Shown here in pieces: positions 58,233-60,478 of a stretch of DNA of 64,000 bases. Each line of letters starts with the position of its first letter. The stretch's first letter is position 1. The DNA lies in sequence record MN850651.1; one strand, given 5' to 3'. Both the position numbers and the translations under genes were made by a program. The notes beneath the pieces were generated by a model that made no database searches, was not told the DNA's origin, and was given only the letters and a program-made list of their open reading frames with translations. Origin of the DNA: Escherichia phage moskry.

Positions 58233-58310
58233 AATCAATCCCGTATTATTTGGTTTGTGCCATTATATACATCAATCTCAAGATGTGTTTTGTATGCTTT
58301 AAAAACGAAG

Positions 58311-58329
58311 AAAGGGGCCGAAGCCCCTT
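58311..58329 (-). terminator. Intrinsic terminator after hoc
   Basis: Stem AGGGGC-CGAA-GCCCCT followed on the minus transcript by a U-rich run. Confidence 0.55.
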
Positions 58330-58331
58330 GA

Positions 58332-59750
58332 TTATGGATATGTATAGATGATACCAGTTTCCAAAGCAGTTTTATGGATGATGTATCCATTACGTGATTC
58401 TTGAACATCAACTTCTGGATAATCTTTCATCATCTTCTGAAGAGTGTAACGATGCAGGTAGTATTTACTATCTGGATCTTCAGTTTTCCAATCTTTACCT
58501 TCTTCAGTCATTTTTTGGATTTCATCCATAACCCACCATCCGCACCAGATGTAAGCTGAAGTACGATGTGGAAGAGGATGAACATAAGGTAATTCACCTT
58601 CTGGTTCTGGAGCAACTTTATCGGTTACCTGAACTTGACCTTCTGCTGTAATAGTTTTGCTATCGTAATCAGTTGCAGTAATAGTTGCAGTAACTTCAAT
58701 AGTTTGACTTCCAATAGATGAGGTATCAACGGTATATACATTAGTTGACCCTTCTACAGGAGAAGAATCTTTCTTCCATGAATACTCAATTTGCGCTTCT
58801 TCTGGAGCATCAGTGACATTAGCGGTAAATGTAGCCGAAGCATCTTGCTGAACGTTAATAGAAGGAGGAGTCAATGTAACCCGTGGATTCATTGTCTTCT
58901 TATTAACCGTTAATGATACTTCATTCGAAGTAACTTCCTTTGCATCATAATCTGTCGCGGTTACTTGGGCTACACATTTAATTCTTTTTACCCCGCTTGT
59001 AGTCGGAGTATAGCTAAATGTAGAGTTAGTTTCTCCACCAACCTGTGAATCATCTACATACCACTGATACGTAGCAGACGCTCCAACCGGTTGAGAAGCT
59101 AAGGCAGCAGTAAATTGAACTGGGGTTCCAATTACTCCGGCTGAAGGACTATTGGGAGTTACTGCCAACGTAGTTGTCTGTGTCTTTTTATTAACAGTCA
59201 GTGACACTTCATTAGAAGTAACGCTTAGTGCGTCATAATCTGTTGCGGTTACTTGAGCCACACACTTAATTCTTTTTACCCCGCTTTCGGCAGGAGTGTA
59301 ATTGAACGTAGCGTTAGTTGCTTCACCAACAGGAGAATCATCTACATACCATTGATAAGTAGCGTTTGCGCCTGATGGCTGCGAAGCTAAAGCGGCAGTA
59401 AATTGAATAGCTGTTCCTATTACTCCAGCGTCAGGGCTATTAGGAGTTACAGCTAAGGTAGTCGTTTGTGTCTTGTTTTGAACTGTGATAGTTGTAGTAG
59501 CTTCTGCTGTTTCAGCTTCAGCTTCTGGAACTGTATTTGTTGCAACTACTTTAATAGTCTTTTGACCGGCAGGTCCTTTTAGTACATAACTAAAAGTTGC
59601 TTCAGCTCCATCTTGTGGAACATCATCCACAGACCAAGCATATGTAATAGGTCCATCTCCAGTTTGACCACTGGGTGTAGCAGTAAACTGCTTAGTCTCA
59701 TCTATAACTCCAGTAGGTGTTTTAGGAGTTATATCAACTGTAAAAGCCAT
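58332..59750 (-). CDS. hoc: Head outer capsid protein Hoc with an extra Ig-like domain
   Basis: 472 aa (recalled T4 Hoc is 376); N- and C-termini match recalled T4 Hoc; two near-identical 96-aa Ig-like repeats. Confidence 0.85.
   Translation of the reverse strand: MAFTVDITPKTPTGVIDETKQFTATPSGQTGDGPITYAWSVDDVPQDGAEATFSYVLKGPAGQKTIKVVATNTVPEAEAETAEATTTITVQNKTQTTTLAVTPNSPDAGVIGTAIQFTAALASQPSGANATYQWYVDDSPVGEATNATFNYTPAESGVKRIKCVAQVTATDYDALSVTSNEVSLTVNKKTQTTTLAVTPNSPSAGVIGTPVQFTAALASQPVGASATYQWYVDDSQVGGETNSTFSYTPTTSGVKRIKCVAQVTATDYDAKEVTSNEVSLTVNKKTMNPRVTLTPPSINVQQDASATFTANVTDAPEEAQIEYSWKKDSSPVEGSTNVYTVDTSSIGSQTIEVTATITATDYDSKTITAEGQVQVTDKVAPEPEGELPYVHPLPHRTSAYIWCGWWVMDEIQKMTEEGKDWKTEDPDSKYYLHRYTLQKMMKDYPEVDVQESRNGYIIHKTALETGIIYTYP
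58894..59469 (-). repeat. Tandem direct repeat, 2 x 288 bp, within hoc
   Basis: Units starting 58894 and 59182 are about 85 percent identical; each encodes one KKTQTTTLAVTPNSP...SLTVNKKT Ig-like domain. Confidence 0.7.
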
Positions 59751-59759
59751 AACTTATCC

Positions 59760-60428
59760 TTATTTTAATGTTACGAAAGAAGAATTACGAGTTTCACGAA
59801 TTAGAACTGATCCATCGCGATTAATATAATAAATTAAGCTAAATAATGTTTGGTGAGCAGAAGCATGCACAAAACTAGTTGGGCGAGATTTCCAATCTGG
59901 GGTTTCGGCTATCCATTGATAAATCCACCAAGGAACAGTAACATATCCTGGGCCTTTGCCTAATTTAATGAGTGTAGGACTAAAATTTTCAGGCAGAACA
60001 AATTTTACTTCTTTATTTACCTCTGGTTCAGGCTCTTTTTCGGATTCAACAATCTGAGTAATTGCTTCTTCGAATTTATCATGGTCGAATTCTTTTTCTT
60101 GTTCGACAACTTCTAATACTTCAACTTGTTCTGTTGGAGAATCAAACAACAGAATAGCTTCTTCTTTAACTTCTTCGTTGGTGAAATTAACACCGTCCAC
60201 ATCATCTGCGGCAGTAATTAAATCGGTGATAGATAATCCATCAGTTTCAGGTAATGGTTCATCAGCCAGTGCGTTAAGAGCTTCTTCGATATCAATAACA
60301 ATATTATCGAATGATTTTGTTTTCTTAACACTAATGCCAAATTGTTCCGCGTATTCAAACAGTTTAGCTTTGGCTTCCTTTTTATCAGAAAGAGCACGTA
60401 ACTCTTCAATATAGTCTTTATCGATCAT
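59760..60428 (-). CDS. inh: Inhibitor of prohead protease (Inh)
   Basis: 222 aa (T4 Inh is 226); acidic; position between hoc and uvsW. Confidence 0.6.
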   Translation of the reverse strand: MIDKDYIEELRALSDKKEAKAKLFEYAEQFGISVKKTKSFDNIVIDIEEALNALADEPLPETDGLSITDLITAADDVDGVNFTNEEVKEEAILLFDSPTEQVEVLEVVEQEKEFDHDKFEEAITQIVESEKEPEPEVNKEVKFVLPENFSPTLIKLGKGPGYVTVPWWIYQWIAETPDWKSRPTSFVHASAHQTLFSLIYYINRDGSVLIRETRNSSFVTLK

Positions 60429-60441
60429 GGTATTTCCTCAT

Positions 60442-60449
60442 TATAAATA
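60442..60449 (+). promoter_or_regulatory. Late promoter TATAAATA for uvsW
   Basis: Exact TATAAATA 30 nt upstream of ATG 60479. Confidence 0.55.
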
Positions 60450-60478
60450 TAACTATATTTATTACATGGTAATTTGAC

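Follow-up and report, generated by a model that had tools for sequence, protein, structure and literature searches.

The Hoc protein of T4-type heads occupies the mature capsid as one monomer per gp23* hexamer, at the centre of the hexamer. T4 capsid display and vaccine research use it as their platform, and it has been proposed as a mucus-adherence factor of gut T-even phages. In the 64,000-nt stretch of the genome of Escherichia phage moskry that was analysed here (the window), the hoc gene comprises 472 codons as compared to 376 in T4, and an original prediction made from the sequence alone ascribed the difference to a recently duplicated Ig-like domain.

The ORF at 58332-59750 was matched by phmmer to T4 Hoc in the PDB (5vf3_Z, 376 aa; E 8e-222), in agreement with the predicted assignment and with the predicted excess over T4. 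The alignment consists of two collinear pieces, in which residues 1-109 of the query correspond to T4 residues 1-109 and residues 189-472 to T4 residues 93-376. Because of this arrangement, and because T4 hoc measures 1131 nt, the 96 additional residues are a further copy of T4 domain 2. As had been predicted, the extra length is due to a duplicated Ig-like domain, here domain 2, whose second copy lies in tandem with the first and would add one domain to the capsid fibre. A protein identical to the window's Hoc is deposited for Escherichia phage moskry (QHR76646.1; MN850651) under the UniRef name "Highly immunogenic outer capsid protein", and RB30 Hoc (AAM52483, 472 aa) belongs to the same 90% protein cluster. 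The paper on moskry does not discuss hoc (PMC7552041).

The gene lies at the conserved genome position of Hoc, as judged by comparison with the T4 annotation, mobillu and F31. It is located between inh and 24.3/24.2/rnlB, with uvsW beyond inh on the other strand, and T4 has hoc in the same position (rnlB-24.2-24.3-hoc-inh). T4 additionally carries segE, a GIY-YIG homing endonuclease gene, between inh and uvsW; segE is absent from the window, where inh and uvsW are separated by a gap of 50 nt (60429-60478), and the same is true of mobillu and F31. A terminator-like hairpin directly follows the stop codon (Table 1), and terminators are annotated at the matching place in G2469 and fPS-2. Upstream of inh and of hoc, no match to the T4 late-promoter motif TATAAATA was found on the minus strand.

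Table 1. Coordinates of hoc, its domains and adjacent elements within the 64,000-nt window.
Feature	Coordinates	Strand	Remarks
hoc CDS	58332..59750	-	472 aa + stop; ORF listing, match to T4 Hoc 5vf3_Z, exact protein QHR76646.1
Ig-like domain 1 (D1) + linker, aa 1-92	59475..59750	-	aligned to T4 Hoc residues 1-109; beta-sandwich, pLDDT 83-94
Domain-2 unit A (D2A), aa 93-188	59187..59474	-	copy absent from T4; clade A; core motif DDSPVGEAT; NJ tree, diagnostic residues
Domain-2 unit B (D2B), aa 189-284	58899..59186	-	counterpart of T4 domain 2; clade B; core motif DDSQVGGET
Ig-like domain 3 (D3), aa 285-380	58611..58898	-	Ig_3/I-set at 289-373, T4 alignment, AF2 model
C-terminal capsid-binding domain, aa 381-472, + stop codon	58332..58610	-	T4 Hoc alignment, invariant columns
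inh (prohead protease inhibitor)	59760..60428	-	9 nt upstream of hoc; synteny context
Terminator-like element: GC hairpin AAGGGGCTTCGGCCCCTT (58312-58329) + T-run	58302..58329	-	directly 3' of hoc stop codon

The window gene is an intact five-domain Hoc, built of D1, D2A, D2B, D3 and a capsid-binding C-terminal domain. Pfam, AlphaFold2 (AF2) and Foldseek agree on the presence of an N-terminal string of Ig-like domains. On the repeated units, Pfam returned PKD at 39.5 bits (cut-off 23.5) and Ig_2 at 28.1 bits (cut-off 27); the Ig_3/I-set matches over D3 were weaker and lay below their cut-offs. An HMM made from units A and B scored approximately 199 bits on each unit (unit A, 199 bits) and approximately 30 bits on D1 and D3. 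In the AF2 model, four consecutive beta-sandwich domains span residues 1-91, 93-188, 189-284 and 285-376 with a pLDDT of 83-95, and a Foldseek comparison with the PDB gave its top matches to multi-Ig ectodomains, those of ICAM-5 (D1-D4), Dscam and ICAM-1 among them (probability 1.00). The expectation that each repeated unit encodes one Ig-like (or Ig/PKD-like) domain was thus borne out by Pfam, the unit HMM and the AF2 model.

The C-terminal domain was poorly modelled by AF2 (pLDDT below 50), because the input alignment of 18 near-identical five-domain Hocs is shallow, and the model was left aside both for this domain and for fibre length. The presumed fold of the C-terminal domain instead rests on sequence identity to T4 Hoc, whose residues 281-376 align with it almost identically. 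Its contact residues Y389, H391, R396, W405, W406, D409 and E451-G455 are kept and are invariant in the 18 five-domain Hocs. With an offset of 96 residues, they correspond to T4 Hoc Y293, H295, R300, W309, W310, D313 and E355-G359 (the ESRNG loop), whose roles in capsid contact have been described (PMC10385173). By analogy, the conserved C-terminal domain would dock at the centre of gp23 hexamers. A 12-nt near-tandem of 2.3 copies (GTAATCAGTTGCA; 58665-58693) was also observed inside D3, at a spot that is annotated as a repeat_region in phage mobillu, and is probably incidental.

The repeat itself was recovered by Tandem Repeats Finder as 2.0 copies of a 288-nt period (58893-59474, 79% matches), and by a second repeat search as 58893-59180 and 59181-59468 with 78% identity. 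When placed in codon register, units A and B are adjacent, in frame, 288 nt each and free of indels, with 224 of 288 nt (77.8%) and 82 of 96 aa (85.4%) identical. The two adjacent 288-bp units that had been predicted therefore exist, within 1-6 nt of the starts originally given; the predicted nucleotide identity of about 85 percent was too high (77.8-79% was measured) and describes the amino-acid identity instead. A chance repeat was rejected, as the 224 matches far exceed both the mean (74 +/- 7) and the maximum (112) of 10,000 shuffles. The next-best 288-nt self-match inside hoc reached 43%. The three domain junctions have the common sequence AA(T/C)AA(A/G)AAGACA, corresponding to N-K-(K)-T.

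Comparison of the units among phages revealed distinct lineages. In a neighbour-joining tree of 33 units, the first units of all multi-copy genes fell into clade A and the second units into clade B, with the exception of Killian, whose second unit grouped with the third units of 568-aa genes in a subclade C. Single-copy units occurred in both clades, A and B. Unit A of the window is 98% identical to the A unit of mobillu, vs. 78% to its own neighbour B, and unit B is 99% identical to the B unit of F31 and 91% identical (95% at the amino-acid level) to the single D2 of T4. Unit C forms a lineage of its own, with a Ks of ~0.5-0.7 to A and B. D2 was found as a single unit (A or B), as a pair (A-B or A-C) or as a triplet (A-B-C), corresponding to proteins of 376, 472 and 568 aa, and in all multi-copy genes examined A stood first, followed by B and/or C. 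The A-B-C order was seen in the six-domain Hocs (568-570 aa) of UGKSEcP2 (L028, 434-2146) and EC101 (L035, 440-2146), and Killian (L034, 301-1719) has a two-unit A-C gene. Among 84 single-copy units, taken from the best 120 database proteins plus T4 and including one truncated fragment (P0111), the core was of type A in 45 and of type B in 31. Mosaic units were also present, FL08 being A at its 5′ end and B at its 3′ end and fPS-2 the reverse. Such mosaics were mapped by nucleotide painting, since the three robust amino-acid positions that are diagnostic for A and B are too few for this purpose.

The divergence between the two units is large relative to that of their surroundings. Units A and B of the window differ at 64 nucleotides, 43 of which are third codon positions, and the Nei-Gojobori estimates are Ka 0.11, Ka/Ks 0.09 and Ks 1.15, the last being near saturation and imprecise over 96 codons. 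For comparison, we used a set of 20 hoc genes from genomes with one D2 unit (T4, JK38, PE37, Shinka, fPS-2, and FL08), two units (the window, RB27, PP01, AR1, F31, mobillu, UAB_60, and Killian) or three units (UGKSEcP2 and EC101), plus four IMG/VR contigs. Over all pairs of the 20 genomes, the median Ks was 0.23 for D1, 0.27 for D3 and 0.21 for the C-terminal domain, with maxima of 0.45-0.59, whereas the A-vs.-B Ks across genomes had a median of 1.03 (range 0.69-1.60). The A-B Ks of the window is thus roughly fourfold higher than the Ks of the hoc domains on either side in these Tequatrovirus and Mosigvirus genomes. The C-terminal domain is strongly conserved in protein sequence, with a Ka of 0.005 (all-pairs median) and 0.009 between the window and T4.

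The five-domain form is widespread. Among the best 120 protein clusters, 77 were of 376 aa, 29 of 472 aa and 7 of 568 aa, i.e., with one, two and three D2 units; several of the 472-aa clusters hold 50-170 member sequences. We found 662 GenBank phage records matching hoc. Sixty of these, taken at even spacing, comprised ~21 with a hoc of 1419-1425 nt (including RB27, PP01, AR1, and Sf21), ~30 with one of ~1131 nt and 2 with the three-unit form. By extrapolation, the A-B tandem would be present in ~230 GenBank records from two genera. Many assemblies made independently, in different laboratories and years, contain the 1419-nt gene with 93-98.6% identity, and the AR1 genome record names RB30 Hoc as its best match. 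The five-domain Hoc is an ordinary, known allele that has long been in GenBank and occurs in about one-third of related phage genomes. Several GenBank matches (H6, H17, H31, H45, and H47) show a hoc span of 1418 or 1420 nt or have the matching region divided over two to three CDS features, which suggests frameshifted or split annotations arising from sequencing errors or pseudogenes. In addition, the hoc region of Shigella phage KNP5 (NC_055713; L029, 501-2572) extends over 2072 nt, with a 588-nt 3′ fragment as the only annotated Hoc, in a record that is unusually long (193,624 nt); an assembly problem or an insertion is possible, and the locus was excluded from the analysis.

Close relatives of the window's phage differ in the number of D2 units. 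The backbone of the window (40000-64000) is ~98% identical to the Mosigvirus genomes mogra, NicPhage, F31, vB_EQ1, and G2469. Within Mosigvirus, Hoc is 376 aa in NicPhage, G2469, 308Ecol101PP, AV110, and FL18, and 472 aa in F31, vB_EQ1, and G53. The single D2 units of four of these genomes (AV110, NicPhage, G2469, and FL18) were painted with the A or B state at each of the 64 positions that distinguish the two units of the window. In all four, the first 5-7 variable sites (unit nt 8-38) have the A state, and the sites thereafter have the B state (all 57 remaining sites in AV110 and nearly all in NicPhage, G2469, and FL18). The upstream flank of the AV110 unit, on the N-terminal side, is 99.6% identical to the window. 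An unequal crossover between A and B would remove exactly 288 nt and leave a unit of this kind, with an A 5′ end and a B 3′ end. On sequence grounds, the 376-aa Hocs of the close Mosigvirus relatives look like unequal-crossover deletion products of the A-B tandem. For the reverse change, A sequence would have to come in from another source, so that loss is the more parsimonious course in the lineage of AV110, NicPhage, G2469, and FL18. Single units of this composition could also have arisen if single-copy genes of the A and B types recombined as alleles.

Exchange of hoc between genera may contribute as well. The hoc gene of the window is 90-96% identical to that of many Tequatrovirus records (teqskov, 95.9%), with 284 records in the 90-95% band. 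For the 24-kb backbone, almost no records fall at 90-95% and 547 fall at 80-90%. This disparity between hoc, at 90-96% in Tequatrovirus, and a backbone mostly at 80-90% hints that hoc alleles have been exchanged between Tequatrovirus and Mosigvirus.

Taken together, we consider it highly probable (roughly 0.88) that the window carries a normal, intact hoc of the Mosigvirus type, in the form of a five-domain allele with an old D2 A-B tandem whose copy number changes by recombination. A and B would then be deep paralogous or allelic lineages that are under purifying selection and common to Tequatrovirus and Mosigvirus, and phage populations would be polymorphic for one, two or three D2 cassettes, corresponding to Hoc proteins of 376, 472 and 568 aa. 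Copy number would most likely shift via unequal homologous recombination between the cassettes and via exchange of hoc alleles in co-infections, and fresh duplication would probably not be the source of the changes.

It is also possible, though less likely, that A and B diverged as alternative single-copy D2 alleles and were later joined by one register-shifted crossover in a mixed infection. Under this scenario, A and B would have diverged prior to joining, so that the tandem would have looked old from the moment of its formation, and the Ks between A and B, greatly above that of the flanks, would be accounted for. Single-copy genes with either core are common, and the junction sequence described above could guide a crossover of this type. 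The fixed order of the units, with A first and then B and/or C, is nevertheless in line with an array that originated once, and the single units of the closest relatives are A at the 5′ end and otherwise B, as expected if they derive from a tandem. Joining of alleles on the one hand, and duplication followed by divergence on the other, predict nearly identical present-day data.

A recent in situ tandem duplication of domain 2 in the lineage of the window's phage, as put forward in the original prediction, is contradicted by the data. Such an event would explain why the units are adjacent, in frame, exactly 288 nt long and without indels. The "recent" reading fails, however, because the Ks between A and B is far above that of the flanks and because the A-B arrangement is found across many phages, RB27, PP01, and AR1 among them. 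The differences are moreover concentrated at third codon positions, the clades to which the units belong are common to many phages, the units resemble their counterparts elsewhere (98, 99, and 91%) much more than A resembles B, and the arrangement recurs in dozens of sampled genomes from two genera. As far as sequence comparison can date it, the A/B tandem appears to be old rather than recent. Repeat expansion in a short-read assembly, a possibility that had also been raised, has nothing in its favour except that tandem repeats are generally prone to errors in such assemblies and can be dismissed, given an intact ORF, an A-B form that is found in independent genomes, the same gene in many independent assemblies, a deposited protein that matches exactly, and copies that are 22% diverged, with 64 of 288 positions differing, so that reads would map uniquely.

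Returning to the old tandem that recombines, a broader version can be tentatively proposed, although we would give it somewhat less than even odds. In this version, D2 would consist of a small set of arrayed cassettes, the old paralogues A, B, and C, whose order is conserved and whose number (one to three) is reshuffled on short time-scales by unequal recombination within and between Tequatrovirus and Mosigvirus. The four-domain Hoc of T4 would be a deletion derivative of a multi-cassette ancestor, and copy number would tune the reach of the fibre and the valency of the mucin-binding D2. If such a cassette array is real, T4's own Hoc might have to be regarded as a reduced form.

An additional domain may have consequences for the shape and the surface of the fibre. 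The four-domain Hoc fibre of T4 is ~180 Å long (PMC10385173). The fibre of the window Hoc would be longer than T4's by one Ig domain, which as a rough estimate corresponds to ~40-45 Å more. In the Hoc of phage PNJ-9, the D2 residues S183-L184-T185 bind fucose residues on MUC2 (PMC11853027). The SLT motif occurs twice in the window Hoc, at 183-185 and 279-281, and is invariant or nearly so in the 18 five-domain Hocs. Because the motif is present at both places, a putative adhesive D2 surface, by analogy with PNJ-9, may be displayed twice per fibre. The domain that varies in copy number is D2, the one reported to bind MUC2. For phage therapy and display, it is relevant that a large share of natural T-even phages have a five-domain Hoc and a few have a six-domain one, and that domain number can differ between close relatives. 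The five-domain allele leaves the current understanding of Hoc unchanged. Hoc proteins are already known to have between one and ten Ig domains (PMC10385173), and a three-domain Hoc has been published for PNJ-9 (PMC11853027), hence variability in the number of Ig domains is not itself new. In the literature searched, which covered few subscription journals, we found no description of the D2 tandem or of the A/B/C cassette system. The proposed copy-number change via recombination between old paralogous A/B/C cassettes is, in our view, modestly new.

When compared to known systems, the window Hoc resembles T4 Hoc (376 aa; PDB 5vf3/8t1x; model of Fokine et al., 2023, PMC10385173) at nearly all residues over T4 93-376, which match or are conservatively replaced. 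T4 Hoc lacks unit A, and the window protein has one 96-aa D2-type domain more, situated between D1 and the T4-like D2. The Hocs of RB30, RB27, PP01, AR1, Sf21/Sf23, teqskov, mobillu, F31, and moskry (472 or 474 aa) have the same five-domain A-B architecture. Within this group, nucleotide identity of the genes to the window is 88-98.6%, and moskry has exactly the same protein; AR1 and Sf21 have two more codons in D1, with the architecture unchanged. The Hocs of UGKSEcP1/P2 and EC101 (568/570 aa) belong to the same family and the same D2 cassette system, with three units in the order A-B-C. More distant examples share with the window a conserved C-terminal anchor and a variable number of Ig domains, and belong to other clades in which other domains were gained or lost. 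The Hoc of PNJ-9 has three domains, lacks D3 and has the MUC2-binding D2 (PMC11853027), and those of Muldoon and PG7 have ten Ig domains and one Ig domain, respectively (PMC10385173). A scan of IMG/VR yielded 21 loci, few of them close, and was of use for comparison with a sister clade, whereas DNA analysis relied on individual GenBank records. Loci L007-L014 form this sister clade, ~48% identical to the window, with Hoc forms of 282, 373-377 and 471-472 aa; this length series was seen in L007, L008, L010, and L013, which match from position 2501 onward. The 472-aa form of the sister clade (L007/L008) has a duplicated D3-type domain rather than a duplicated D2, the neighbouring domains being 59-78% identical in amino-acid sequence, and its 282-aa form lacks D2. 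The D3-type duplication and the D2-less form of this clade indicate that Hoc proteins have repeatedly gained and lost entire domains.
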